Assembly: GCA_019358915.1 (NCBI GenBank)
Contig: JAHHIM010000012.1
Location: 32,001 to 96,000, forward strand
Direction of reading: 5' to 3'
DNA: 64,000 bases
DNA from: Trichormus sp. ATA11-4-KO1
Lineage (GTDB): Bacteria; Cyanobacteriota; Cyanobacteriia; Cyanobacteriales; Nostocaceae
Positions 308-20,212 of the stretch are shown here, piece by piece (the stretch's first letter is position 1; each line of letters begins with the position of its first letter). Both the position numbers and the translations under genes were made by a program. The notes beneath the pieces are model-generated. The model saw only the letters and a program-made list of their open reading frames with translations. It was not told the DNA's origin and searched no databases.

Positions 308-1273
308 ATGACTCACCACATTTTAAAAGCCACCAAGAAAACTGTGCATCTAGGTGGGTTCTCTCATCTATTAGAACCAGCACTCACTATTGAATCTGGC
401 GACACAATTGATGTGGAAACCTACACTGGTTATTACGTTTACGACAAAGCACCATCAGAGTTTCTCACCCCAGAATTTATTGATATCTGCCAAAATCTTC
501 CTTTAGAACGGAAAGTTGCTGGCGGGCCACATTTACTCACAGGGCCAATTTACGTCCAGGATGCAGAACCAGGAGACGTTTTAGAAGTAAAATTAGAAGC
601 GATCGCACCTAGTTTACCTGTTGGTTTTAATGCGATTCGTCCAGGCTGGGGCGCATTACCAAACCAATTTACTCAACCTGCACTGAGATTTATTCCCCTC
701 GATTTAGTCAGCAATATTGCGGAGTTTCCTGTTAATAGTGGAATTAAAATTCCCCTCAAACCCTTTTTTGGTATCCTTGGTGTCGCTACCCCAGAAAACT
801 CCCGAACATCAGTTCCACCTGGTTGTTATGGTGGTAACATCGATAACCGAGAACTCCAAGCAGGTTCTCGCATATTTTTACCTGTTTTTGTCCCAGGTGC
901 ATTATTCTCTCTTGGTGATGGACATTCCGCACAAGGCGATGGCGAAGTAAATGTCACCGCCATTGAAACTTCTATGAACGGTAAAATTATACTCAAACTT
1001 CGCCAGGACTTACACCTAACAACACCCATAGCTGAAACACCAACTGATATTATCACCATGGGGTTTGCTCAAACTTTAGATGCAGCTTTGGAAATAGCTG
1101 TCAAAAACATGATAGATTTTTTGGAACGTTTTACAAATTTGTCAGCAGAAGACGCTTATGTATTGTGTAGTTTAGCGGTAAATTTTCGCATCACTCAAGT
1201 TGTCAATAGTCCTCAAAAAGGTGTTCATGGGATGCTGCCCAAAGCGATCCTTTCACATAAAATAAGTTTATAG
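308..1273 (+). CDS. Acetamidase/formamidase family protein
   Basis: HLLTGPIYV-AEPGD, GGNIDNREL and GDGHSAQGDGEV motifs; ATG at 308 preferred over TTG at 287. Confidence 0.9.
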   Translation: MTHHILKATKKTVHLGGFSHLLEPALTIESGDTIDVETYTGYYVYDKAPSEFLTPEFIDICQNLPLERKVAGGPHLLTGPIYVQDAEPGDVLEVKLEAIAPSLPVGFNAIRPGWGALPNQFTQPALRFIPLDLVSNIAEFPVNSGIKIPLKPFFGILGVATPENSRTSVPPGCYGGNIDNRELQAGSRIFLPVFVPGALFSLGDGHSAQGDGEVNVTAIETSMNGKIILKLRQDLHLTTPIAETPTDIITMGFAQTLDAALEIAVKNMIDFLERFTNLSAEDAYVLCSLAVNFRITQVVNSPQKGVHGMLPKAILSHKISL

Positions 1274-1293
1274 TTAACAATAAATAATCTTGT

Positions 1294-1665
1294 ATGTCTA
1301 ATATCTTCATCCAAATGTTAATTATTGGTCTAATTGCCGGCATTGCTGGTGGTATGTTTGGTATCGGTGGTGGTGCAATTATGGTACCAGCAATGGTTCT
1401 GCTAGCTGGTTTGGATCAGAAATTTGCTACAGGTACTTCAATTGCTGCCCAAATTTTACCAATTGGTATTTTAGGAGCAGCAGTATATTATCGTAATGGC
1501 AATATTAATATCAAATATGCTGCCATCATTGCTATTGGGCTAGTTGTTGGTAATTTATTTGGCGCATTATTTGCTAATCAGCCATTTATTAGCAGTGAAA
1601 TGATGAAAAAGCTGTATGGCGTTTTTTTATTACTCATTGGTCTGCGGTATTTAGTAGGACGTTAA
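1294..1665 (+). CDS. TauE/SafE-family (sulfite exporter-like) small membrane protein, half-size
   Basis: GMFGIGGGAIMVP and ATGTS motifs; hydrophobic. Confidence 0.85.
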   Translation: MSNIFIQMLIIGLIAGIAGGMFGIGGGAIMVPAMVLLAGLDQKFATGTSIAAQILPIGILGAAVYYRNGNINIKYAAIIAIGLVVGNLFGALFANQPFISSEMMKKLYGVFLLLIGLRYLVGR

Positions 1666-1686
1666 GAGTAGGGAATTTGAGGAAAA

Positions 1687-1785
1687 ATGCCAAAGGATTC
1701 ATTATTTACTAACCGTATAGCTGTGCTGGCGACAATGCACCAAAAAGAAAAAGTTACCGCTCCATGTCTACACATTGACAGCTAA
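1687..1785 (+). pseudogene. Truncated N-terminus of a conserved hypothetical gene (DUF6671-like)
   Basis: SD GAGGA then MPKDSLFTNRIAVLATMHQKEKVTAP, stopping after 32 codons at the end of the convergent gene. Confidence 0.55.
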
Positions 1786-2789
1786 AATCTGACAACTACT
1801 TTGCCGCAATTTTGACCACTCAGCAAATATTCAACAGCAGTAGGTATGGATTCTACACCTAGAAATTGCCTTTGATCAACAAAGACTTTGAGTTTACCTG
1901 TGTAGAAAAGATTTAACAAGCGATCGCGTGCCTCTGTCATATATTCTTGATAATGAGGCATGAGAAAGCCACGCACAGAAGCAGCTTGCCAAAATAGCTG
2001 GTGATAAATCCGGGGTTGGGTAATTTCCGCCAAATTTTTCCCATACTCAGAGATAAAGCCAAGCACCACCAAACGTCCCCGCACCGCTAAGTTATCAACA
2101 CAGGTATCGAAAACCTGTTTACCCACACACTCAAAAATCAAATTAATGCCATTGAGGTACTCTTGTTGCAAGACTTGACCAAGGTTTTCTGTACGATAAT
2201 TAATAATGCGATCGCATCCTAATTCCTTTAATAACTGCACCTTTGCTTCAGAACCACAAATACCAATTACATGATTACCTGCTAACTTCGCCAACTGCAC
2301 AGCAATATGACCTGTTCCACCCGCCGCAGCCGTCACCAAAACAACTTCATTACTTTTCATCTCCCCAACTTGTTCTAATGCCACCAAAGCTGATACACCA
2401 GTAGGCATCAAAGTTAACACTTCCGGGGTAACTTCCCGCACCTTAGTTACTAAATTCGCATCGATAATTTGGTACTCACGATAACCACCACCACGGTTAG
2501 TAGTTACCACAGCCTCACCAACTTGGAAATTTTTGACATCCTCACCCATAGCAACAACTTCTCCCACCGCTTCCACACCCAAATCAAAGGGAGGAATTAA
2601 GCTAACATAGGGAACATCACCACGACAAAGTAAAGTATCAAAACCACCATTAATCCCAGCAAATTTATTTTTAATTAACAGTTGCTTAGTAGTAGGTTGA
2701 GGAATAGGAATTTCCACAACTTCCACAGCAGATTTAAAATCTTGCTCAAATTGCTTTGCTATTAACTTTCTGTAGATTTTTGCCTTCAT
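1782..2789 (-). CDS. Zinc-independent MDR-family NADPH oxidoreductase (prostaglandin reductase/ZADH2-like ene-reductase)
   Basis: VLVTAAAGGTGHIAVQLAKLAG nucleotide-binding motif, GVEAVGEV, C-terminal GKVVV. Confidence 0.85.
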   Translation of the reverse strand: MKAKIYRKLIAKQFEQDFKSAVEVVEIPIPQPTTKQLLIKNKFAGINGGFDTLLCRGDVPYVSLIPPFDLGVEAVGEVVAMGEDVKNFQVGEAVVTTNRGGGYREYQIIDANLVTKVREVTPEVLTLMPTGVSALVALEQVGEMKSNEVVLVTAAAGGTGHIAVQLAKLAGNHVIGICGSEAKVQLLKELGCDRIINYRTENLGQVLQQEYLNGINLIFECVGKQVFDTCVDNLAVRGRLVVLGFISEYGKNLAEITQPRIYHQLFWQAASVRGFLMPHYQEYMTEARDRLLNLFYTGKLKVFVDQRQFLGVESIPTAVEYLLSGQNCGKVVVRF

Positions 2790-2978
2790 TTTTAATCTTA
2801 ATTTTACCTTACTCCTTAATTATTAGTTTTAACGTATGTAGCAGTCCTAACTCATAAGTCCTGCGGACACGTTACGAGAACGTAAAAAATTTTATTAAAT
2901 TTCTCTGCGTTCTCTGCGTCTCTGCGGTTCGTTTTCCAAAATTATCACTAATTCAGCAAAAGTAGACTCTTGGTTCTC

Positions 2979-3027
2979 AACCCGCGTAGGCGGGTTTTGA
3001 TTGTGTAGCAGCGACTTTTAGTCGCCC
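2979..3027. repeat. Composite dispersed repeat; related copy at 58742-58813
   Basis: Reverse complement GGGCGACTAAAAGTCGCTGCTACACAATCAAAACCCGCCTACGCGGGTT aligns to the 58742 copy. Confidence 0.6.
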
Positions 3028-3030
3028 TTC

Positions 3031-3831
3031 TTAGGCTTCTAAGGCTTTATCCCACTCTAACTGATGAGCTAAACCATACGTGATAAAATCTTCTACTTTA
3101 GCTTGATCACTTTTACCAAAAACGCCTAAACTGTAAGGATTATCTTGCATTCGTTGTGTAACTTGCTCTTTTTCAAATACTATCACTTCCTCTCTAGACT
3201 TATCGGGTTTAAAAAAGTCTACAACCAAAACAGTTCTGTCATAATTAGTGTAATTATGTGGACAATGTGGATAGCTGTGATCTAAAACCATAAATTTTCC
3301 TTCATACCAATAAAGCTGCTCATGGCATATTTTCATAGCCACATCCCCCTCAGGTACAATCAATCCTAGATAGCCACGATTCATATGAGGGTTATAGTTC
3401 ACATGTAGTTTAATATCTAATCCTGGACGAAAGGTACCAAAATAAACATTTCTGATGATATTATCATCGCTCAAGTTTACTTTTGCTATCACCTCAGTCA
3501 AATTAGGAAAATATTTCTCTCTCAAAGCAAGTGCTTTTTCTGATGCCTCTTCTGCTCCATAATCAGGATATTCTATTTGATACAAGCGAATATATTCTTC
3601 AATAAATAAACCTTTAAATAAAATCCCAAAAGCACTATATTTCGCATTACCCCTAGTTTTAATCGTCTTACTTTTAGGTCCCAGAACATCAAAAGTGAAC
3701 GCTAATTCCTCAGCAGACGCATGATTAAAAAAACTTGTAAACTCATCTCTAATCACTGACCAGTTATCTTGAAAACTGTTGAGAAAAGTAAACTGCTTTG
3801 GATCTAAATGATACTCATTAAACCTTACCAT
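3031..3831 (-). CDS. Aspartyl/asparaginyl beta-hydroxylase-family Fe(II)/2OG dioxygenase
   Basis: NWSVIRDEF, PGLDIKLHVN, WYEGKFMVLDHSYPH and RTVLVVDF patterns. Confidence 0.8.
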   Translation of the reverse strand: MVRFNEYHLDPKQFTFLNSFQDNWSVIRDEFTSFFNHASAEELAFTFDVLGPKSKTIKTRGNAKYSAFGILFKGLFIEEYIRLYQIEYPDYGAEEASEKALALREKYFPNLTEVIAKVNLSDDNIIRNVYFGTFRPGLDIKLHVNYNPHMNRGYLGLIVPEGDVAMKICHEQLYWYEGKFMVLDHSYPHCPHNYTNYDRTVLVVDFFKPDKSREEVIVFEKEQVTQRMQDNPYSLGVFGKSDQAKVEDFITYGLAHQLEWDKALEA

Positions 3832-3910
3832 AATCTTTCTCCTCCAAATGATTGAATAAAGATTTTTGACGTATTAATATCAGCAATTCTATCTAAACTT
3901 GTAAAATAGT

Positions 3911-4050
3911 TATAGCGTTTCCTAATGCGCTGAAGGACTGAATACACCGCTAATAAAATTTGACAATCTTTGCGTAACTCTGCGCTACCTTAGCGTTCCT
4001 CTGCGTTAAAAAATATTAGTTCTGTACTCACTTAGTTGGGAATCGCTATA
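3911..4050. mobile_element. MITE with TATAGCG ends (IS630/Tc1-like, TA target)
   Basis: TATAGCGTTTCCT ... GGGAATCGCTATA terminal inverted repeats, non-coding interior. Confidence 0.55.
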
Positions 4051-4148
4051 AATTCTTTTTCAGTCACAAATTTCCTTTTTAACTTCTTAGCTCTGTGCCT
4101 CTGTGGTTTAAAACTAGGTTATGTAGTCATTTTAGTGTGAGGTCTACC

Positions 4149-5618
4149 ATGTCCGAAGCCCCCTTATTAGATAAAATAATTAAAAACGTCAGAGTAGTTC
4201 GTCCCCATCAAGATACAGTCGAACTACTTGACTTGGGAATTAAGGATGGAAAATTTGTCCAGATTGCTCCTTATATTAGCCCAGACCAAGGTCAAGAGAT
4301 ATTTGATGCCAAAAACCTCCTAGGCTTTCCAGGTGTCGTAGATGCCCATATGCACATCGGTATTTATCAACCTCTTGACCAAGATGCAGTGACTGAAAGC
4401 AAAGCAGCCGCCATGGGGGGAGTCACAACTAGTCTCAACTACATTCGTACAGGACAGTATTATTTAAACAAAGGCGGTGCTTATCGAGACTTTTTCCCAG
4501 AAGTATTAGCCTTATCCAGAGGTAATTTTTTTGTTGATTATAGCTATCACGTCGCCCCCATAGCTAGCCAACATCTTGACGAAATCCCACTATTGTTTAC
4601 AGAACATGGAGTATCTTCCTTTAAAATCTTTATGTTTTATGGAGGTTACGGTTTGCATGGTTTATCAGACCAACAAAACCTCTTTTTGATGATTAATAAA
4701 GAAGAACGCTATGACTTCGCCCACTTTGAATTTATTATGCGCCGTCTCACTTCCTTGATGGCAGATTATCCAGAATCGCGAGATAGTATCAGCTTAAGTT
4801 TGCACTGCGAAATTGCCGAAATTCTCAACGCATACACCAAAATAGTCGAAAATGATTCCAGCCTCAGTGGACTACACGCTTATAGTGCAGCACGTCCCCC
4901 CCATTCCGAAGGTTTAGCAATTTGTATTGCTTCTTATTTGGCACATGAAACCAACTGTGCAAACATCAATTTATTACATCTCAGTTCGCGTAAAGCAATG
5001 GAAGCAGCCTTGACAATGCAAACTGCTTTTCCCCATATTAATTTCCGACGAGAAGTCACTGTTGGACATTTACTATTAGATGTCGATACCCCTACAACTA
5101 CTTGGGCCAAAGTCAACCCACCTATCCGTCCCCGTGCCGATGTGGAATACTTATGGCAAGCAGTACTTAATCATCAAGTAGATTGGATAGTTAGTGACCA
5201 TGCTTGTTGTTCTGCCGAACAAAAAAGAAGCGCAAAATACCCAAATAATATATGGTTAGCAAAATCTGGTTTTGGTGGTACAGAATATTTACTTTCTGGT
5301 GTATTTAGTGAAGGTAGCAAGCGGGGAATGTCTTACAGCCACATGGCTAAGTTGCTATCTTGGAACCCATCCCGGCGGTTTGGTGTACTCACAAAAGGTG
5401 ATATTGCTATTGGCTACGATGCTGATTTGGTGTTATTAGACCCCCGTGAAACCTTCGTAGTACGTGCGGCTGAATCAGAGTCACAACAAGGTTACACACC
5501 CTTTGAAGGAGTAGAATTAACTGGAAGGGTGAAAACTACCTTTTTGCGCGGAAACAAAATTTACGACCAAGGACAAGTGCTTGGTGTACCAACTGGACGT
5601 TATTTAAAAAGATGTTAG
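4149..5618 (+). CDS. Cyclic amidohydrolase (allantoinase/hydantoinase/dihydroorotase family)
   Basis: DAHMH metal motif, SFKIFM (carboxylated Lys), SLHCE, LHLSS, SDHA, KVNPPIR; ATG at 4149 follows GAGG. Confidence 0.85.
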   Translation: MSEAPLLDKIIKNVRVVRPHQDTVELLDLGIKDGKFVQIAPYISPDQGQEIFDAKNLLGFPGVVDAHMHIGIYQPLDQDAVTESKAAAMGGVTTSLNYIRTGQYYLNKGGAYRDFFPEVLALSRGNFFVDYSYHVAPIASQHLDEIPLLFTEHGVSSFKIFMFYGGYGLHGLSDQQNLFLMINKEERYDFAHFEFIMRRLTSLMADYPESRDSISLSLHCEIAEILNAYTKIVENDSSLSGLHAYSAARPPHSEGLAICIASYLAHETNCANINLLHLSSRKAMEAALTMQTAFPHINFRREVTVGHLLLDVDTPTTTWAKVNPPIRPRADVEYLWQAVLNHQVDWIVSDHACCSAEQKRSAKYPNNIWLAKSGFGGTEYLLSGVFSEGSKRGMSYSHMAKLLSWNPSRRFGVLTKGDIAIGYDADLVLLDPRETFVVRAAESESQQGYTPFEGVELTGRVKTTFLRGNKIYDQGQVLGVPTGRYLKRC

Positions 5619-5628
5619 CTTAAAAAGC

Positions 5629-6531
5629 TTATGCGTCTTTAGCTGCATATGACAAGACTGTTCCCAGTTGTGATAAATCCCTATCAACTCGAACAAAAAA
5701 TAAGCAACCATCATCTGTTCTGTGCCAAGGAGAGGTGGTAAAGCTGGGAATGTAACCAAAGCAATCCTTGACAAATCGAAAATCTCCAATATCACAGTAT
5801 CCAGCTAGACAATACGCCTCTTCGTTATAAGATTGTATTTCTGTGTACCTGCCGTCATAATGTGGCAAGATGGCAAGGAGCCATACTCCACCTCCGTTGG
5901 CATCTTTCCTCAAGTACTTCTTTTTTGCTACCTCAAATTGAACTGTATCTGTCTTGCCCCACGATAGCAATTTACTATCCAATGCTGGGATGAACTCATC
6001 CATCCTCGCGTTTGGGTGGTTATTTTGTGCGTCCTTATACTTGAGAATACCGTTCTCCATCCAAAGGATTTCCACTTCATCATCACCAAGCACTTTCCAA
6101 GGGCCTACCCTCACTCCTGCCGGTATAAATGAGTATCCATGCTTGTTTAGTTGCCATTCACCTAATTGAATAACACCTTTAAGCACAAAAATTTCTAAAT
6201 CGGCAGTAAATATACCAGAGGGTGCTGCAAACTGGGGTGGTAACACAACTTTGGAAGTAGATGCACCACTATCATGCCAAGTCAGCAATTGATAGTTTCC
6301 AGGTGCTACATATTCTGGCATTCCCCGCACTCGCCACCCATGTTCTACTGATACAGCATTTGTGTCAAAGTACTGATACTGTCGAGGTGCATATTCTGGG
6401 GAAATAGCCGTGTGTCTTCCTGATAAATTCATGCGCCCTCTACCATCTCCACCCCAATCTTCCTTCACAGGCGCTACATTCAAAAAATCATTAGTCTCTT
6501 CATCGGGGACAGTCTTATAATTATTTTCCAT
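5629..6531 (-). CDS. Tandem cupin-like protein (DUF4437-like)
   Basis: LEIFVLKG...YSFIPAG and NEEAYCLAG...PWH repeated cupin-like halves. Confidence 0.65.
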   Translation of the reverse strand: MENNYKTVPDEETNDFLNVAPVKEDWGGDGRGRMNLSGRHTAISPEYAPRQYQYFDTNAVSVEHGWRVRGMPEYVAPGNYQLLTWHDSGASTSKVVLPPQFAAPSGIFTADLEIFVLKGVIQLGEWQLNKHGYSFIPAGVRVGPWKVLGDDEVEILWMENGILKYKDAQNNHPNARMDEFIPALDSKLLSWGKTDTVQFEVAKKKYLRKDANGGGVWLLAILPHYDGRYTEIQSYNEEAYCLAGYCDIGDFRFVKDCFGYIPSFTTSPWHRTDDGCLFFVRVDRDLSQLGTVLSYAAKDA

Positions 6532-6561
6532 CTATTTAGAACTCATACAATACTCCAAATA

Positions 6562-7950
6562 TTACGCCAGTCTTTGTTTAACTTCTTCAGCTAAATTTTC
6601 TAGTGATACTTCTACTTGTTCACCTGTTTTTAAATCTTTAAGAGAAGACTTTTGCAATGCTGCTTCTTCGGAACCAATAATTACACAGAATTGAATTCCT
6701 TGTTTATCAGCTAGCTGGAATTGTTTTCCCAAACCTTTTTTTTCAAAGTTAGTGATAACATTAATTCCAGCTTTACGCAGGTTTTGGGACACCTGTAAAT
6801 AAATAGGCATCAAATCTTCCTGCATATTCACTACCATGACCTGCGCTGGTGTAGCAGCTAAGGTACTCAAAATACCAGCTTTTAGTAATCGGCTAATTAA
6901 ACGAGTTAAACCAATAGAAATACCCACACCAGGCATTTTTTCGCCTAAAAATGTGCCTACTAACTCTTCATATCTACCGCCAGAACAAATACTACCTAAA
7001 GCTTCATGTCCTAATAAAGTTGTTTCATAAACAGTACCTGTATAATAATCAAGACCACGAGCGATCGCTAAATCAATACAAAAGCGATTTTCAGAAACTC
7101 CAAGGTTACGAACACCTGTAATCACTGTTTCTAATTCAGTGACTCCCAAGCTAAATTGTTCAGCTTCAGGCAAATTTTGTGCAAGATGCTTAAGCTTATC
7201 TAATACCTCATCAACACTGCCGTTAATTTTAATAAAGTCAATAATTTTTTGAGTTTGTTCTGCTAAAATATCTTCTTTTTCTAATTGTTGTTTGACTTTA
7301 GCCTCACCGATTTTTTCCAAGTTATCAATAATACTGATACAAGATTTAATTTTATTTTCAGCAATTCCTAACGACTGAAAAAACCCTGTAAGAATTTTAC
7401 GGTTATTAATGCGAATCAGAAAATCACCAATATTAACAGCCTCAAATATCTCGGTGATAATTGCAGGCATTTGAGCATCATAAAGTAAACTGAGTTCACG
7501 CCGAGCAATTACATCAATATCACACTGGCGGAACTGGCGGAAACGCCCATCTTTTGCTCGTTCACCCCGAAAAACAACATCCATTTGGTAACGAGCAAAG
7601 GGAAAGGTTAATTCATTGAGGTGACGAGCAATATAAGCTGCTAAAGGAACTGTTTGGTCAAACTTTAAAGCTCTAGCTTCTGAACCTGTTTCTCCTGCTT
7701 TTTCTTTTTCGGCTTGCCGATTTGGTGGCAGGATAGGGTCAATACCATAAATAATATTGTCACCTTGATTTCCCTTGGCTTGCAGCACTTCTAAACGTTC
7801 TACAGCCGGAGTTTCTATAGGTGTAAATCCATAACTTTCAAAAACTCTCCGGATGGTATCTAGTAAATATAATTCCAAGCGTTTTTCGCTGGGAAGAAAT
7901 TCGGGAAACCCGCTAGGAGTTGAGAAGTTGATTTTGTCGCTTTTTGCCAT
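6562..7950 (-). CDS. hisS: Histidine--tRNA ligase
   Basis: LKFDQTVPLA, FRGERAKDGRFRQFRQCDID, ARGLDYYTG, SGGRY and an anticodon-binding C-domain. Confidence 0.95.
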   Translation of the reverse strand: MAKSDKINFSTPSGFPEFLPSEKRLELYLLDTIRRVFESYGFTPIETPAVERLEVLQAKGNQGDNIIYGIDPILPPNRQAEKEKAGETGSEARALKFDQTVPLAAYIARHLNELTFPFARYQMDVVFRGERAKDGRFRQFRQCDIDVIARRELSLLYDAQMPAIITEIFEAVNIGDFLIRINNRKILTGFFQSLGIAENKIKSCISIIDNLEKIGEAKVKQQLEKEDILAEQTQKIIDFIKINGSVDEVLDKLKHLAQNLPEAEQFSLGVTELETVITGVRNLGVSENRFCIDLAIARGLDYYTGTVYETTLLGHEALGSICSGGRYEELVGTFLGEKMPGVGISIGLTRLISRLLKAGILSTLAATPAQVMVVNMQEDLMPIYLQVSQNLRKAGINVITNFEKKGLGKQFQLADKQGIQFCVIIGSEEAALQKSSLKDLKTGEQVEVSLENLAEEVKQRLA

Positions 7951-8018
7951 GCTGATACCTGGAAAATCGTAAATTATGCAAACACAAAGTAAGGCTAGAG
8001 CCTCTGACTACAAACTTT

Positions 8019-8465
8019 CTACTGTAGTCGTTCTTCTTGGATAATGGTGCGTTGGTAAATTTGATGGTTTTTAAACCAGTGCCAAGTACGGGCACGATGG
8101 TTATTGTCAGGGCTAAGTAAGATCATTTCATATAAATACATTTCTGGTACTGTCTTATAAGCAAACCACAAAATAAGGGTAGAATCATCAACTTCCCAAG
8201 CTTTTCCTTGAATACGTTCTGTGTCAAACCAGAGCATTTTATCGCGATAGGTTCCTGGAAATTTATGCTCTTCTTGTTTTCCATCAGACCATTTGTAGCG
8301 ATTGATTTGATAGTAGGAATAAATGTCGTTTTCTGGAAACTGGCAGGTTAAATGAGATTGATGTTGATCAATAATTTTACCTTCTATATCTATCAAAGTA
8401 TACGTACCTACCCAATCACCCTCATGGCGGGCTAGCACTGGCATTTCTTCTCGAATATTAGACAT
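8019..8465 (-). CDS. DUF3598-like calycin/beta-barrel protein
   Basis: HEGDWVGTY (calycin GxW) start, alternating beta-strand pattern, NHRARTWHWF. Confidence 0.65.
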   Translation of the reverse strand: MSNIREEMPVLARHEGDWVGTYTLIDIEGKIIDQHQSHLTCQFPENDIYSYYQINRYKWSDGKQEEHKFPGTYRDKMLWFDTERIQGKAWEVDDSTLILWFAYKTVPEMYLYEMILLSPDNNHRARTWHWFKNHQIYQRTIIQEERLQ

Positions 8466-8500
8466 TACACAATTCCTTGAAATAAGATTTTAGGCTTCTA

Positions 8501-9919
8501 TTAACCATTATCAAACCACCAAGGGTCGCTACTAGAGTTAGTTTTAATCAAAAATGCTTTTTTTCGTAAAAATCGTTTTAGTGATGCTGGCCCCATACGT
8601 GAACCACCAAGACCGGAGAATTTGAAAGAATTCTTCTCTCCTTCGTACATAATGGCAGTGAGAGCAGCATCATTAATACTAATGGCTCCTGCATCTATTT
8701 GTTGGGCAACGGCTAAAGCTTCTGCTTCTGACTCGGCAAATACTGCTGCACTTAGTCCATAAATAGAGTCGTTGGCTAAATACACTGCTTCCTCAACTGT
8801 GGAAAACGGCATCACTGGCATGATAGGGCCAAAAGTCTCTTTGGTCATCACTTTCATTGAATGGTTTACCTGGGTAATCACAGTTGGACGACACCACCAA
8901 CCTCCGCCTAATTCCTCAACTTTACCGCCACAATGAATTAATGCTCCTTTTTCGACTGCATCTAGAAGATGGTCGTTAATAATTGCGGCTTGTCTTTCGG
9001 CAATAATGGGGCCAATTTCTCCATTTTCCACTTTGGGATATGCTAACTGGAGGCGATGGGCTTTGGCTATCAGTTGATGGTAAAACTCTTCAAATATCGC
9101 TTCTGCAACGTAAATTCGCTCAATTGAGAGACATGATTGTCCGGTGTTGACTACTGAACCCCACAAAATCGCTGAAGTTGCTAATTCTAAATTGGCTGAC
9201 TCCAAAACGATCGCGGGGTCTTTTCCTCCCAATTCTAAAAAAGCTGGAATAAAGCGTCTAGCTGCGGCTTCTGCTACTTTGCGCCCTGTCGCTACACTAC
9301 CTGTAAAGCAGACTAAATCTACATATTCAATTAAAGCTGCTCCGGTGTCACCGGCTCCTTCCACAAAACTTAATACGTCACGTAAATTGGGCACAGTATT
9401 AATGGCTGTAATCAGTGGTGCTACGAAGCGGGGAGCAATTTCACTGGGTTTAACAATCACTGCACAACCCGCCAACAATGCGGGAATTGTATCAATCGTC
9501 GATAGCAACAATGGAAAATTCCACGGGCTAATCACCCCAACTAAGGGATAAGGGACTGATGTTTGTTGTAGGGCGATAAATGGAATGGCTGTATTTTTGG
9601 CTGAGTCTTGCAGTAACTCTGGTGCTAACCCACACCAACGGTCAATACTAGCCAGGAAGGAGTCTATTTCTAGTACAGAGGTGGACAATCTACCTGTATC
9701 ATTTACCAGCGCTTCTGTGAGCCGTTCTCGCCCAGATAATATGGCTTGCTTCCATTGCTGTAAGGCATCAATTCTAGCTTCTAGACCTAACTGCTGCCAA
9801 TGAATTTGCGCTCTCCGGGCGCGGTTGCATTGATGTATCAACAGCCTCGGCGGCGGCGGGAGAATTACATAGTCAAATTTTCCAGTCCGGGGATTGCGAA
9901 CTTCTATTGGTTTGGTCAT
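8501..9919 (-). CDS. NAD(P)-dependent aldehyde dehydrogenase
   Basis: ISPWNFP, FTGSVATG, LELGGKDP (Glu), GQSC (Cys), ETFGP; ATG at 9919 preferred because the upstream codons are STRR-like repeats. Confidence 0.95.
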   Translation of the reverse strand: MTKPIEVRNPRTGKFDYVILPPPPRLLIHQCNRARRAQIHWQQLGLEARIDALQQWKQAILSGRERLTEALVNDTGRLSTSVLEIDSFLASIDRWCGLAPELLQDSAKNTAIPFIALQQTSVPYPLVGVISPWNFPLLLSTIDTIPALLAGCAVIVKPSEIAPRFVAPLITAINTVPNLRDVLSFVEGAGDTGAALIEYVDLVCFTGSVATGRKVAEAAARRFIPAFLELGGKDPAIVLESANLELATSAILWGSVVNTGQSCLSIERIYVAEAIFEEFYHQLIAKAHRLQLAYPKVENGEIGPIIAERQAAIINDHLLDAVEKGALIHCGGKVEELGGGWWCRPTVITQVNHSMKVMTKETFGPIMPVMPFSTVEEAVYLANDSIYGLSAAVFAESEAEALAVAQQIDAGAISINDAALTAIMYEGEKNSFKFSGLGGSRMGPASLKRFLRKKAFLIKTNSSSDPWWFDNG

Positions 9920-10058
9920 TGGACATGGGGCATTGAGCATTGGGCATTGAGCTTAATCAGGGTAGAAAGCCCAAAACTACGCCCAGATATAGCACGTAGA
10001 ACAGCAATGTGACACATCGGTGCAGTTAGGGAAAGTTTCCAGCTTAATTTTCTACAGG

Positions 10059-11099
10059 TTAAATTATCCCCAATTTGGCTAAACGTTCAATAGTTATTTG
10101 TTGTGTTTGCGTGAAGTGTTGACGGTTTACTTCTTTGTCCAGCATAGTATTTGCTGGGTAAAACTGTGACTGGTTGTAACTTTGAGCGTATAGTTCAAAG
10201 CGCTGGCGTGAAAGTAAATTATTTAACCCTGGACGGCGGCGATCGCGGCGTAAAGCAGCTAGGTCAATCTCGGCAAATGCTGCCATGCTTTCGCCTGTAC
10301 TGGTTTGGGCTAGGACTATTCCGCGATGGTCAATGATTTTAGAACCACCATCGGCTGAAGCGTTGGGGATGGGATTATTAACGATACCTGCTGTATTCGC
10401 TGAAACTACGTAAGCCATATTTTCGACAGCGCGGGTAATTTTGGCTGCATCCTTCGGTGTGAGGTTCTTACCATACACTTCTGATGTGGAGTGTAAAAAA
10501 ATTTCGGCTCCCCGCATTGCCAGACACCGCGCCACCTCTGGATATAAAATTTCTTCTGATGCCAAAGTAGCCAAGTTACCAATTGCTGTCTTAGCTACGG
10601 GAAAAACGCCTTCTAAACCATAGCAATCGAGATACTTATCCCAAACATCATGAGGTGTAGGGGCAAACATAGAATTTAGCCGCCGATACCTTAAGACAAT
10701 AGCTCCAGCAGGATCAATCACAAAGCAGCTTTGAAAGTACAACCCTGGAAAGTTGGGGTCGAGTTCGTAGGCGTTACCAGCTAAAAATATTTGATGTTTT
10801 TGGGCAATTTTACCAAGTGCTTCATACTCAGCACCATCCATTTCTAGACAAGCTCTTTCTCCCCAAACAGCCAAGGATTCTCCCATAGGGAAACCTGTCA
10901 GAAAATATTCTGGTAAAACAATTAAGCGACAGTCAAAGCCAATAAAAGCAATACTAGCTGCAATTTGTTGCGCCAAGCGATTGATAGAGTTTTGCATCAA
11001 CAACCGGGCTGCTTGGCGATCGCTTGCTTGATTGACGGCATGGCAAGTAACTTGCAGTGCCAAAGCTCGAAATGAATCTATATTATCAGTGTTTGCCAT
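10059..11099 (-). CDS. Nitrilase-superfamily carbon-nitrogen hydrolase fold protein with an atypical triad
   Basis: LIVLPEYFLTG, RAVENMAYVVSAN and GGSKIID motifs; YRR and ASEE stand where YRK and ICYD are expected. Confidence 0.85.
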   Translation of the reverse strand: MANTDNIDSFRALALQVTCHAVNQASDRQAARLLMQNSINRLAQQIAASIAFIGFDCRLIVLPEYFLTGFPMGESLAVWGERACLEMDGAEYEALGKIAQKHQIFLAGNAYELDPNFPGLYFQSCFVIDPAGAIVLRYRRLNSMFAPTPHDVWDKYLDCYGLEGVFPVAKTAIGNLATLASEEILYPEVARCLAMRGAEIFLHSTSEVYGKNLTPKDAAKITRAVENMAYVVSANTAGIVNNPIPNASADGGSKIIDHRGIVLAQTSTGESMAAFAEIDLAALRRDRRRPGLNNLLSRQRFELYAQSYNQSQFYPANTMLDKEVNRQHFTQTQQITIERLAKLGII

Positions 11100-11159
11100 G
11101 CTGGGGAAATGGGGAGTGTACTTCGACTGCGCTCAGTAACCGGGGAATGGGGAGTGTCA

Positions 11160-11924
11160 TTAATGAATAATTCGATCACCACCCCAAAGCGATCGCACTA
11201 GTTTATCTGTCATCTCTTGACCAAACAACCGCACAGCTATTTTATTATCTGGATCACGTTCTGCGATCGCTCGACGGACAATGAAGTCACGCTCAGATAA
11301 AGCAGCACGCTCTGATTCTGCTACTGATTCAGCTTCATCTACCCAAGTCAACCACCGATCCATCATCTCATGAGCCACGTTTCTCAGTATACTTAGTGTC
11401 TCTTCCATGACTGGGCTGGTGAAACACAAACTCGTATGAGATTGGGCTTGACGAATGTAGAGAGTTTTGCTGTGATACTGCTGGAAACGTTCATCTGCAA
11501 GTAAATTCAGATATGTTTGATTCATTGGCTCGTAGTAGCGATCTAAATATTCTAGGTCAATGAATAGATCAGTACGAGGAATATAATCCATGTAAAAGAA
11601 TAGGTGTGGTACTGTAGCAAATGCATAAGCCAGATGCGGCACACGGATATGCGGTTTTAGCCAATTAGTCAGGTGCATATTACAAAAACCTGAATTAGGT
11701 TCCCGCAACCATGAATGTACTAGCCAATCCAATTCGGAACCCGAAAAAGCAGTGAGTGAACCTTGTGCATCTCCCGTCTGGGCAAAATAGCTTTGTAAGT
11801 CTTGGGTAGACGGATCTGGCTGTACCTGAAAACGATTGTCTAGTTTTTGGCGGAGTTCTTTGGTAATCCCCCATAACTGCTCAAATACGGCTGAACTGTC
11901 TAGTTGGAGTTGCTGTTCTGGCAT
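11160..11924 (-). CDS. Red chlorophyll catabolite reductase (RCCR)-like ferredoxin-dependent bilin reductase family protein
   Basis: LDWLVHSW, YMDYIPRTDL..DLEYLDRYY and ERD...R...ERDP...RLFG patterns resemble RCCR; ATG at 11924 follows AGGTG. Confidence 0.75.
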   Translation of the reverse strand: MPEQQLQLDSSAVFEQLWGITKELRQKLDNRFQVQPDPSTQDLQSYFAQTGDAQGSLTAFSGSELDWLVHSWLREPNSGFCNMHLTNWLKPHIRVPHLAYAFATVPHLFFYMDYIPRTDLFIDLEYLDRYYEPMNQTYLNLLADERFQQYHSKTLYIRQAQSHTSLCFTSPVMEETLSILRNVAHEMMDRWLTWVDEAESVAESERAALSERDFIVRRAIAERDPDNKIAVRLFGQEMTDKLVRSLWGGDRIIH

Positions 11925-17261: not shown

Positions 17262-17351
17262 AGACATCTCCGCAAAAGCATGTAGAGACTTTGTATGCAA
17301 AGTCTCTACAAAAGATTATGGAAGATGCATATTTAATTTCTGGAGATGTCT
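17262..17351. mobile_element. 90-bp MITE (AGACATCTCC TIRs) containing a REP-like palindrome
   Basis: AGACATCTCC ... GGAGATGTCT with TTT on both sides; internal TGTAGAGACTTTG-TATG-CAAAGTCTCTACA hairpin. Confidence 0.6.
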
Positions 17352-18034
17352 TTTGTATTCTGGATATGCAACCGGGTGTAGTTCTTTACTTCTCCAGGTA
17401 TATTAATCGTTGACGGTACACGAGCATCAGCGATCGCTTCCCCCGCCACTAATTTTAATGGCACAACACCCGCCCACACTGGCAAGGTATAGTCTGCTTC
17501 ATCATCTAAGGGTGGGCCTGTCCGCACTTTAGCTGATGCTTCTGTTAAAGGTAGGGAAAGCACCAAAGTTCCTTGTAACTCCTGGCGATTAGGCGGGCGT
17601 ACTTCTGCCCATCTTTTTGGTACTACATGCTCAGTAAATGCTCGGAGGGCTTCTAGCTTTTGTTCTGCATCTTTTACTATGGTTGCTGTTCCAAATATCA
17701 CTACTGAACGGTAGTTCATCGAATGATGGAACGCAGACCGCGCCAATACTAACCCATCTAGGAGAGTTACAGTCAAGCAAACTTCAATCCCAGTTTGTAG
17801 ACTTCGCAACATCCGACTGGCTGGTGAACCATGAATATATAAACTGTCTTCCACACGACCATAAGCAGTAGGAATTACATAAGGTTGGCTATCTACAGCA
17901 AATCCCACATGACAGATTAAACCTTCATCTAAAATCTGATAAATCACTTCACGTTCATAATTTCCCCTTTGAGGTACGCGCTTAATTTGACTGCGTTGTG
18001 TTGGGGTTAACTGTTCCTGATTAATTTCATTCAT
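17333..18034 (-). CDS. Pyridoxamine 5'-phosphate oxidase-like flavin-binding protein
   Basis: YIHGSPASRM, LDGLVLARSAFHHSMNYRSVV, ASAKVRTGPP. Confidence 0.9.
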   Translation of the reverse strand: MNEINQEQLTPTQRSQIKRVPQRGNYEREVIYQILDEGLICHVGFAVDSQPYVIPTAYGRVEDSLYIHGSPASRMLRSLQTGIEVCLTVTLLDGLVLARSAFHHSMNYRSVVIFGTATIVKDAEQKLEALRAFTEHVVPKRWAEVRPPNRQELQGTLVLSLPLTEASAKVRTGPPLDDEADYTLPVWAGVVPLKLVAGEAIADARVPSTINIPGEVKNYTRLHIQNTKDISRN

Positions 18035-18641
18035 GATTGTATTTCCAATAAATCCAGTTGCATGGCGTTACTCTCAGAAAAACCCAAGCTGGAGTAAACT
18101 GGTTTACCTGATGGCGAAGCATTCAGAACGACTCGCGTGCAACCGATCGCTTTCAAATGAGCGATCGCACTATGAGTTAATTTCTTAGCAATGCCTTGTC
18201 TGCGGTAAGCTGGTTCTACATAAACGCCCCAGATATACCCGTATTTTCGATACTCGGCTGTGAATACATTCGGGTATAAACCGGAAAATAATTGACAACT
18301 TACAGAACCCACGATGACATTGTCTATCTCTGCGACAAAAGCTTGGTAAAACAATTCTTGACGAGCTTGTTCGGTAAACTGGAGGGTAATATCTAGCCAG
18401 TTGGGGTTAATTGCTTCATCAGGAACGCCAATATCTTGCCACAGTTGATAAAAGTGCTGTGCAATCAATGCGTCTTCTTGGGGAATTGCTTCTCTAATAG
18501 TGATTTGTCGGCGTTGCTGATTGAAAATATGAATTTATCTCGCGCAAAGGCGCAAAGGCGCAAAGGTACAAAGAAAAATCAGGGTGATTTTAGCATTTCA
18601 TATTCTGATTCAGCAACGCCGATTTGTCGTTCTGTCAGCAT
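18031..18641 (-). pseudogene. GNAT acetyltransferase interrupted near its start by a MITE
   Basis: Motif A VYVEPAYRRQGIAK; removing the MITE and one TSD copy restores MLTERQITIREAIPQEDALIAQHF from the ATG at 18641. Confidence 0.8.
18510..18620. mobile_element. 111-bp MITE with GGCGTTGCTGA TIRs and an 8-bp TSD
   Basis: GGCGTTGCTGATT ... ATTCAGCAACGCC flanked by a GATTTGTC duplication (18502-09, 18621-28). Confidence 0.9.
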
Positions 18642-18660
18642 CGTTAGAGACGTTTATTTG

Positions 18661-18732
18661 AACCACTGTTAGCGTAATTTCCCAAGTGGTATTAGACAAT
18701 AGCCACTTTTGTGATTTAATAGCAGTCCACTT
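18661..18732. promoter_or_regulatory. Probable MocR/GabR operator (repeated CCACT/AGTGG boxes) in the divergent promoter
   Basis: AACCACT, AAGTGG, AGCCACTT and GTCCACTT in direct and inverted arrangement, as is typical of MocR sites. Confidence 0.45.
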
Positions 18733-18745
18733 TCATTGCTGGATT

Positions 18746-20212
18746 ATGGATTTAGCGATCGCCCTTGATAGTAATTCCCCTCTACCTCTGCATCAGCAGC
18801 TATATCAAGAACTGCGTCAAGCCATTTTCAATGGGCGATTGTCGCCTGGAGTGCGGATTCCTTCCACGCGATCACTAGCCAAATCTTTGAGTATTTCTCG
18901 CACTACTGTCACCCAAAGCTATGAACAACTCTTGAGTGAGGGTTATTTAACAACTGTTTTGGGTTCCGGGACGTTTGTCTGCGCTCAACTTCCTGATGAC
19001 TTGCTGCATTCTACACCGATAGCATCGAGCCAAATAATTACTCGTCCGCCAGTTAAATTAAATCGATATGGTCAGGTTTTGTCCAAGACAGAGGATTTAC
19101 CGAGAATTCCCGCACCTAATACCCCAATTAACTTTCGCTACGGACAACCAGCTATAGACCAATTTCCTTTGAAGTTGTGGCGCAGATTACTATCACGTTA
19201 CTTTTACAAAGATTTGAGTTGGCTGGATTATTCCACACAACCCTTGGGTTATCAACCTTTGCGGGAGGCGATCGCTCGTTATCTATCCAGTTCCCGTGCT
19301 GTTAAGTGTGAGGCGGATCAAGTACTGATTGTCAATGGTACTCAGCAAGCACTTGATTTAATTGTCCGATTGTTAATTGAGCCTGGGGATATCATTGCAA
19401 TGGAAGACCCTGGTTATATGAGCGCACGTTTAATATTTCAGACTCAAGGCGCTGAACTCTTACCCATTACCGTTGATGAATCAGGTTTGATGGTGAAAGA
19501 ACTGGTAAACTCTACCAAAAAACCCATTTTGCTTGTCTATGTAACACCTTCCCACCAATTCCCCACAGGAGCAATTTTATCTTTACCTCGCCGTTTAGAA
19601 CTACTAGCTTGGGCGCAGCAAACCGGAGGATTGATTATTGAAGATGACTATGATAGTGAATATCGCTATGGTGACAGACCAATTCCGGCTCTACAAGGCT
19701 TGGATCGCAGTGATTCAGTGCTGTATATTGGGACTTTTTCCAAAGTGCTGTTTCCCGGATTACGGATTGGTTATTTAGTATTACCTAAGAATTTAGTTGC
19801 TTTATTTGCCCGTGCTAAATGGTTAAGCGATCGCCACCTGCCTATACTAGAACAGCAAGCACTTGCAGACTTCATCACCGAAGGACACTTAGAACGTCAT
19901 ATTAGAAAAATGCGATCGCTTTATGAACGGCGTTGTCAAGTCCTGGTTCAGGCGTTAAATGTTTACCTTGGAAAAAAAGCCACCATTTTAGGAGAAAAGG
20001 CGGGAATTCATTTAATGGTAAAATTGCACAGCCATCTCAGTGATGAAGAAATCATACAATATGCTACCCAAATGGGTGTGGGGATTATGTCTGCCAAACC
20101 ACAGTATCTGCAACCCCACAGCACAGGTGAGTTTATTTTCGGCTACGGCGAACTAACAGAACAGCAATTAGTGGAAGGTATTCGCAGATTAGCACCAATC
20201 TTCACCGCATGA
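18746..20212 (+). CDS. MocR/GabR-family GntR regulator with PLP aminotransferase domain
   Basis: wHTH (PSTRSLA...SRTTV), VTPSHQFPTG, IEDDYDSE, GTFSK. Confidence 0.93.
   Translation: MDLAIALDSNSPLPLHQQLYQELRQAIFNGRLSPGVRIPSTRSLAKSLSISRTTVTQSYEQLLSEGYLTTVLGSGTFVCAQLPDDLLHSTPIASSQIITRPPVKLNRYGQVLSKTEDLPRIPAPNTPINFRYGQPAIDQFPLKLWRRLLSRYFYKDLSWLDYSTQPLGYQPLREAIARYLSSSRAVKCEADQVLIVNGTQQALDLIVRLLIEPGDIIAMEDPGYMSARLIFQTQGAELLPITVDESGLMVKELVNSTKKPILLVYVTPSHQFPTGAILSLPRRLELLAWAQQTGGLIIEDDYDSEYRYGDRPIPALQGLDRSDSVLYIGTFSKVLFPGLRIGYLVLPKNLVALFARAKWLSDRHLPILEQQALADFITEGHLERHIRKMRSLYERRCQVLVQALNVYLGKKATILGEKAGIHLMVKLHSHLSDEEIIQYATQMGVGIMSAKPQYLQPHSTGEFIFGYGELTEQQLVEGIRRLAPIFTA

Follow-up and report, generated by a model that had tools for sequence, protein, structure and literature searches.

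The 64,000-nt window analysed here (positions 32,001-96,000 of contig JAHHIM010000012.1 of Trichormus sp. ATA11-4-KO1) contains a conserved unit at 1782-11924, in which eight enzyme genes are arranged around hisS. Gene coordinates below are window positions unless a genome (G), contig (C) or locus (L) number precedes them. The eight genes encode an RCCR-like protein, a nitrilase-superfamily C-N hydrolase (Nit), an aldehyde dehydrogenase (ALDH), a DUF3598 barrel, a DUF4437 cupin, an AllB-like cyclic amidohydrolase, an AspH-family oxygenase and a medium-chain NAD(P)H reductase (MDR). The host genome is cyanobacterial, 5.97 Mb in size and 99.9% complete. The block is a real, conserved and undescribed gene unit, and its link to tetrapyrroles is plausible. 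The chances are about even that it degrades pyrrole, pyrrolinone or imide fragments with alkyl substituents, the likeliest source of which would be linear tetrapyrroles (bilins or chlorophyll catabolites). Whatever the substrate is, the block reveals a branch of nitrilases in which Glu-Arg-Ser is fixed at the active site, together with two RCCR active-site types that co-vary. The final breakage of the pyrrole rings of bilins and chlorophyll, and the recovery of their nitrogen, is unanswered in the literature found. The block offers specific candidate enzymes and substrates for this breakdown.

Conservation and extent of the block

An earlier note on this DNA had proposed a tetrapyrrole-breakdown and nitrogen-recovery cluster built around RCCR, and its gene-neighbourhood check was carried out. 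The partners do recur. In the 18 cyanobacterial loci fetched with RCCR, Nit stands directly after RCCR in 15, and in 16 ALDH is no more than about 3 kb away; DUF3598 is present in full in 10 and hisS in eight. An even sample of 401 cyanobacterial genomes gave RCCR matches in 20 (the own genome and two fragments included), and 17 of its 46 Nostocaceae genomes were positive. Among the 17 full-length matches outside the own genome, nine adjoin an intact Nit, and three have ALDH with a Nit remnant or without Nit. The other families were searched in 37 of the 46 Nostocaceae (all RCCR-positive genomes and 20 of the 29 negatives) and in 43 other cyanobacteria. Of the 37 Nostocaceae, 19 had Nit, 16 had AllB and 24 had DUF3598, and none of the three was found in the 43 genomes outside this family. 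All 16 AllB genomes and all 15 AspH genomes are Nit-positive; AspH occurs in exactly the genomes with AllB except G059, which has a broken AllB. DUF4437 occurs in 13 of the 37, 12 of these being Nit-positive. PCC 7120 and N. punctiforme are among the listed carriers of homologues. Chance neighbourhood of the eight enzyme genes is rejected in view of this recurrent linkage.

The two hydrolases are the most conserved members, with identities of 80-90% for Nit and 83-92% for AllB. Where the block is split, AllB is flanked on one side by AspH, MDR and a SnoaL gene and on the other by DUF4437 or an alpha/beta hydrolase. MDR follows AspH or AllB in 16 of 68 cyanobacterial loci, which include kin genomes and near-duplicates and are not independent. 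Broken remnants of the block (L050, L055, G147 and G059) suggest an ancestral Nostocaceae block with repeated loss.

The left border was set at 1782 because the neighbours beyond it, an acetamidase gene (308-1273, plus strand) and a TauE/SafE gene (1294-1665, plus strand), recur in none of the 68 loci. The encoded TauE/SafE protein is half-length, with 123 aa spanning 2-109 of a 237-position model. Likewise, pfk and hisF were each found in one of the 68 loci, that of a 98% identical sister. These four genes are chance neighbours. The earlier note had counted acetamidase, TauE and ureG (mostly left of the window, ending at position 119) as cluster members, which is not upheld. It had also allowed that the left-hand genes might be unrelated neighbours; this holds for acetamidase, TauE and the ure genes, but AspH and MDR are members. 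The half-length TauE gene starts 20 bp after acetamidase, downstream of ureE-F-G, and the two occupy the SnoaL position. In most relatives, the 98% identical sister (L001) among them, the gene after MDR is SnoaL; here SnoaL lies on another contig (G000:C3:126056-126445).

Arrangement and proteins of the block

Open reading frame listing and Pfam/NCBIfam scans bore out the gene order and orientations described earlier. Six genes are co-oriented on the minus strand, with gaps of 60, 118, 35, 68 and 30 bp from the RCCR-like gene to DUF4437: RCCR-like (11160-11924), Nit (10059-11099; CN_hydrolase, PF00795), ALDH (8501-9940; Aldedh, PF00171, E 7.5e-103), the 148-aa DUF3598_N calycin-type beta-barrel (8019-8465; PF12204), hisS (6562-7950; TIGR00442 above cut-off) and the DUF4437 cupin (5629-6531; PF14499, E 2.8e-69). 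The AllB-like gene (4149-5618, plus strand) converges on them and ends 10 bp from DUF4437. The AspH-family (2-oxoglutarate/Fe-type) oxygenase-like gene (3031-3831, minus strand; PF05118) diverges from AllB and is followed by MDR, of the quinone or ene-reductase type (1782-2789, minus strand; ADH_zinc_N). The presence and orientation of AspH, MDR, TauE, acetamidase and ureG were confirmed as well. Among the 11 genes scanned, only hisS passes a curated NCBIfam cut-off.

The RCCR-like protein has 254 aa and matches RCC_reductase (PF06405) with E 4e-24 and 85.5 bits against a cut-off of 24.9. Its AlphaFold2 model has a pLDDT of 91.6. The fold check asked for in the earlier note placed this model within the bilin reductases: Foldseek ranks 1-9 are RCCR with E about 1e-15, followed by HY2, PebB, PebA and PcyA. 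A phmmer comparison with Arabidopsis RCCR (3agb) gave E 1.6e-12, and the fold is shared with the Arabidopsis structures 2zxk and 3aga at 24-25% identity and TM values of 0.76-0.78. The fold assignment is therefore certain. In the active site, residue 101 is Ala; among 120 homologues it is Glu in 62 and Ala, Val or Gly in 58. It co-varies with residue 84 in two types, Arg84/Glu101 (60 homologues) and His84/Ala101 (42, with eight more His/Val). The window protein and its closest heterotroph copies are of the His/Ala type. The distal Asp is kept as Asp224 (Asp in 118 and Glu in two of the 120). In the alignment to 3agb, position 101 corresponds to Glu at chain position 111 and position 224 to Asp at chain position 248. 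We take these to be Glu154 of RCCR, which is catalytic, and Asp291. An ungapped but weak profile match (E 0.02) to PcyA of the same genome pairs position 84 with His88 and position 101 with Asp105. Stated roles of PcyA His88 and Asp105, the latter being the acidic proton-donor position, are given in a passage of PMC13446030. The usual proton donor thus appears to be absent from the RCCR-like protein, and another residue may replace it; His84 and Asp224 could supply protons.

Nit also departs from its relatives. Alignment to solved amidases identified its active site as Glu64-Arg140-Ser181 and not the canonical Glu-Lys-Cys. AmiE, AmiF and Nit2 (PDB 2uxy, 2dyu and 2w1v) have the fold family and the catalytic Glu in common with Nit, but in the Nit clade Lys is replaced by Arg and Cys by Ser. 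Glu-Arg-Ser is found in all 120 close homologues (120/120), and a sister clade has Glu-Arg-Cys.

In ALDH the motifs ELGGKDP and GQSC are seen, and no NCBIfam model reaches its cut-off. The DUF3598_N protein is a single 10-stranded barrel (AlphaFold2 pLDDT 95). Its VIA Z scores are 18.1 for BFA1, 16.1 for Npun_R4044, 14.8 for nitrobindin (rmsd 3.0, 139 aligned), 14.1 for OlmO and 12.7 for the CpeS lyase (rmsd 3.1, 139 aligned). BFA1 and DUF3598 thus outscore CpeS and nitrobindin, and OlmO is tied with nitrobindin. The modelled fold allows tetrapyrrole binding. The DUF4437 protein is close to PDB 2QDR (E 4e-153). The AllB-like protein, of the allantoinase/hydantoinase type, has intact metal-site motifs (HxH, Lys, His, His and Asp in the alignment to 1nfg and 3e74). 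Its scores are below the cut-offs of the named equivalogs, namely 228 bits vs 358 for allantoinase AllB, its best NCBIfam match, and 184 vs 393 for dihydropyrimidinase. hisS is the only histidyl-tRNA synthetase of the genome, the sole other match being 24% identical, and it had no match in 57 distant Nit loci. It is probably a housekeeping anchor inside the block and not a pathway enzyme.

Related islands outside cyanobacteria

RCCR-like genes at 52-56% identity occur in four Chloroflexota loci and one deltaproteobacterial locus, four of the five with a Rieske oxygenase. The other contents differ from island to island and include alpha/beta hydrolases, a maleate-isomerase-family gene, LeuC/D, CoA-transferase III, an HMGL-like lyase and AllB; NCBIfam names LeuD/DmdB and HMG-CoA-lyase subfamilies among them. 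In 301 Chloroflexota genomes, RCCR-like genes were found in four (the centre genome included) and AllB at at least 53% identity in four. Three genomes share both genes, 5-7 kb apart. The Chloroflexota AllB orthologues are 53-72% identical to that of Trichormus. Nit occurs in one of the 301 genomes, G754, whose island combines a DUF4437-like gene, DUF3598 (46%), ALDH (61%), Nit (67%) and SnoaL with genes of the RCCR-Rieske islands (GntR, barrel, DUF3891, HMGL, LeuC/D, CoA-transferase and AllB). In the deltaproteobacterial metagenome-assembled genome G405, three RCCR-like genes are accompanied by a Rieske oxygenase, and Nit (50%) lies about 23-35 kb away on the same contig. This Nit adjoins a CpeT/CpcT bilin-lyase-family gene (PF06206, E 6e-35) and DUF3598 (52%). 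Among 151 genomes of that phylum, Nit was found only in this centre genome.

Distant Nit loci were taken from metagenomes. From the best 80 of 580 matches, 23 close and probably cyanobacterial loci were set aside, and the remaining 57 (55-68% Nit identity; 551 kb in total, 25 of them at least 10 kb, several near-duplicates) were examined. Neighbours of Nit were ALDH (19 loci), alpha/beta hydrolase (14), MDR-family (11), DUF3598 (8), DUF1838 (7), AllB (6), hydantoinase A (6) and DUF4437-like (3) genes. LeuC/D, HMGL and CoA-transferase at 47-64% identity to the RCCR-island copies were present in 4-6 of the 57; for LeuC the values are 60-64% in six loci and for LeuD 55-63% in five. These loci also hold importers (TonB-dependent receptors, TRAP, MFS and ABC), GntR/MarR repressors and carbon-skeleton lyases. 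In Nonomuraea gerenzanensis, an ALDH-DUF3598-Nit operon (L084:16189-18936) is flanked on both sides by ABC uptake systems, and an FAD monooxygenase gene lies close by. RCCR-Rieske-hydrolase and Nit-ALDH-barrel-cupin can be read as two upper modules with a common lower module, which centres on AllB and the LeuCD/CoA-transferase/lyase set. In Nostocaceae, RCCR stands directly in front of Nit.

The 'barrel' proteins of Chloroflexota gave no significant comparison with the DUF3598 alignment and are not counted as its homologues. A four-locus family resembling CpcT had no Pfam match and a pairwise E of 8e-4 only, and it was not counted. The name chlorophyllase could not be assigned to the island alpha/beta hydrolase.

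Oxygenases and regulation in the Trichormus genome

No PaO gene lies in the block, and two PaO-domain genes are found elsewhere in the genome. Two Nostocaceae loci have a Rieske gene inserted in the block, namely L046, where Pfam assigns it a PaO domain, and L051. The Rieske proteins of the heterotroph islands score as VanA_C and not as PaO. Their closest relatives in the Trichormus genome are two tandem Rieske/VanA_C oxygenase genes, 44% and 40% identical to the Chloroflexota island Rieske (G000:C5:88071-91432; L193:1071-4432). The next gene downstream is hemF (PF01218), and genes for an FAD oxidase and an exporter come after it. Orthologues of LeuCD, HMGL and CoA-transferase were not found in the genome.

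NtcA control of the block found no support, as perfect-box counts are not above those of shuffles. The intergenic regions of the window contain no perfect box (GTA-N8-TAC). Upstream of homologues, perfect boxes are at or below shuffles for RCCR (1/39), Nit (2/46), AllB (0/19) and AspH (0/20). A relaxed pattern is raised only upstream of ALDH (36/51 vs 16.7 in shuffles), where the regions may include part of the Nit 3' end. The proposal of the earlier note that the cluster serves to recover nitrogen is therefore not borne out. Nitrogen recovery during chlorosis is unsupported because the genome has no carbon-skeleton orthologues and no NtcA signal was seen.

Proposed function and alternatives

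Substituted maleimides are known oxidation products of tetrapyrroles, and the predicted lower chemistry suits substituted maleimides or maleamates. According to a passage of PMC10151467, every characterised member of the RCCR/FDBR/CPOX fold acts on a tetrapyrrole. On these grounds, catabolism of tetrapyrrole fragments is the single most likely function. In the proposed route, an open-chain tetrapyrrole would be made elsewhere, either by bilin release or by an unlinked PaO/Rieske oxygenase of the genome. The RCCR-like protein, an optional upper step, would reduce a methine bridge with ferredoxin and so break the conjugation. The AspH-type oxygenase and/or the DUF4437 cupin would then cleave or hydroxylate the bridge to give a formyl-pyrrole or pyrrolinone held by the barrel, and ALDH would convert formyl to carboxyl. 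MDR would reduce the maleimide-type C=C bond, the AllB-like enzyme would open the cyclic imide or lactam and Nit, with its Glu-Arg-Ser site, would turn the amide into acid and ammonia. In heterotrophs, a LeuCD-type hydratase, CoA-transferase III and an HMG-CoA-lyase-like enzyme may further split a substituted maleate or malate. Since orthologues of this last set are absent from the Trichormus genome, its version would serve disposal or partial salvage and not carbon feeding. The tetrapyrrole reading of the earlier note thus keeps the RCCR fold, the conserved linkage and the heterotroph islands that tie RCCR to AllB and to Nit-ALDH-DUF3598, and it loses the left-hand members and nitrogen recovery.

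Several observations weigh against a tetrapyrrole substrate. RCCR and the lower genes do not always travel together: RCCR is solitary in five of the 17 full-length matches of the even sample, and it lacks an intact Nit in five Nostocaceae as well as in G011 and G141. The 37 Nostocaceae are divided into ten with RCCR and AllB, five with RCCR only, six with AllB only and 16 with neither. A profile search detected no RCCR in five Nit-positive Nostocaceae genomes that are 99-100% complete (G020, G095, G101, G107 and G149), three of which carry AllB and AspH, and the profile matches in G032 and G059 are weak (E~1e-7). Conserved co-occurrence with RCCR stands, but RCCR is not obligatory. The non-independence of the 68 loci also counts here. 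In Chloroflexota, the four RCCR genomes are without this Nit, DUF3598 and DUF4437, and G754 is without RCCR by profile search, its island also lacking Rieske. The RCCR profile found nothing within the sequence of the 57 distant Nit loci (nine of the 23 close loci were positive), and tblastn found no RCCR in 37 kb around the Nonomuraea operon. Besides, the window protein has Ala101 where PcyA has acidic Asp105, the barrel fold is equally similar to the non-tetrapyrrole binders BFA1 and OlmO, and the families of the lower enzymes are found in N-heterocycle catabolism generally, the same chemistry serving for pyridine and hydantoin.

Part of this evidence suits another explanation, in which Nit, ALDH, barrel, AllB, AspH, MDR and cupin degrade some other N-heterocycle or a cyclic amide (pyridine, pyrrole, hydantoin, modified purine or pyrimidine) along a route like that of maleamate and the RCCR-like protein acts separately, its gene having been fixed upstream in Nostocaceae. 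The absence of RCCR from the distant loci and its solitary copies agree with this, the occurrence of Nit matches that of AllB far more closely than either matches RCCR, and recurrent distant neighbours include hydantoinase/oxoprolinase A/B, isochorismatase-type amidases, maleate-isomerase-family proteins and alpha/beta hydrolases. However, an AllB orthologue and the same LeuCD/HMGL/CoA-transferase set lie inside the RCCR-Rieske islands of another phylum, and CpcT-family genes stand near Nit in G405, L181 and L124. We regard this explanation as rather unlikely. Detoxification only, in which phototoxic open-chain tetrapyrroles are bound or reduced and reactive maleimides and aldehydes removed with no useful nitrogen gained, is improbable. 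The lack of carbon-skeleton orthologues and of NtcA-box enrichment, the patchy presence with broken remnants and the Ala in place of the acidic residue would all agree with it, and a His84/Ala101 protein may bind its ligand or use other chemistry. On the other hand, the most conserved members are the two hydrolases that would release ammonia, and His84 and Asp224 could still supply protons. That the block makes or tailors a small N-containing metabolite and is not catabolic is very improbable: SnoaL-like proteins, OlmO-like barrels, AspH hydroxylases and MDR are common tailoring families and a Ser/Arg nitrilase could be a transferase, but the distant loci come with importers, GntR/MarR repressors and carbon-skeleton lyases, and no scaffold-building enzyme recurs.

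Relation to known systems

The breakdown of tetrapyrrole fragments, as preferred here, resembles the plant PAO/RCCR (phyllobilin) pathway in that the distal Asp of Arabidopsis RCCR is kept and that, in the heterotroph islands, RCCR-like genes are accompanied by a Rieske oxygenase and alpha/beta hydrolases. It differs in the Glu-to-Ala exchange at position 101 and in the absence of a PaO gene from the block. Moreover, the plant pathway ends at linear phyllobilins, whereas the block adds families for oxidation, ring-opening and amide hydrolysis. In a more far-reaching reading, which is somewhat less likely than not, the block would be the cyanobacterial version of a pathway, so far undescribed in bacteria, that continues past this end point. 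A His/Asp-type RCCR would reduce the bridge, the molecule would be fragmented oxidatively, the imide would be opened and a nitrilase with a serine nucleophile would release ammonia; heterotrophs would mineralise the product via LeuCD, CoA-transferase and lyase. The logic is similar to that of the maleamate pathway of pyridine catabolism (NicX/D/F/E) and of the dimethylmaleate hydratase and lyase (DmdAB, Dml) of nicotinate fermentation. There, the ring is opened, a formyl or amide group is removed, and maleate isomerase or a LeuCD-type hydration is followed by cleavage of the aldol type. Members of these families are present in the heterotroph islands. However, no window gene is orthologous to a named nic/dmd gene, and the candidates for amide cleavage are the AllB-like protein and the atypical nitrilase.

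RCCR homologues in Nostoc and Anabaena were noted by at least 2009, and as far as the relevant passages of PMC2716323 go, no function was assigned; two of them, Npun_R3277 and R3279, had opposite expression in hormogonia (PMC2716323). The main text of a recent preprint (bioRxiv 10.64898/2026.03.19.712979) describes prokaryotic 'SH-RCCR' sets of genes for chlorophyll degradation, with RCCR homologues from Nostocaceae, Actinomycetota, Pseudomonadota and Chloroflexota. It also reports a cluster of approximately 11 kb in Shewanella acanthi, for which the in vivo evidence is partial and extends as far as pheophorbide. That main text covers CLH/PPH/PAO/RCCR/SGR only and does not demonstrate RCCR activity, and Nit, ALDH, barrel, AllB, AspH, MDR and the LeuCD/HMGL lower set are undescribed in it. 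The gene set was nowhere described in the literature searched, subscription papers and preprint supplements being outside its scope. New here are the full extent of the block (AllB-AspH-MDR-DUF4437), the bridge island of G754, the two RCCR active-site types and the negative counts.

Further observations

An NmrA-family gene stands beside RCCR or Nit in 20 of the 68 cyanobacterial loci (L010, L011, L016, L017, L023, L046, L051, L053, L055-L057 and others), and an isocitrate-lyase/PEP-mutase-family lyase is present in seven; neither is found in the Trichormus window. DUF1838 and VOC-like genes flank Nit in L119, L121, L161 and G405 and are unlinked to the block in Trichormus (G000:C5:173879-174739 and C3:28652-29680). 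RCCR had no match in the plasmid collection. An alpha/beta hydrolase of the Trichormus genome (G000:C36:462399-463397) shares 48% identity with the hydrolase whose gene separates RCCR from Rieske in the Chloroflexota islands. The RCCR island of the non-phototroph G405 holds DUF2499 and DUF3593 genes (L022:286-999 and L097:2637-3068), and its L097:3271-5021 resembles an NAD(P)-binding domain followed by a third RCCR-like domain. Finally, at 17333-20212 of the window, a pyridoxamine-phosphate-oxidase-like gene and a GNAT gene diverge from a GntR/MocR-type regulator.

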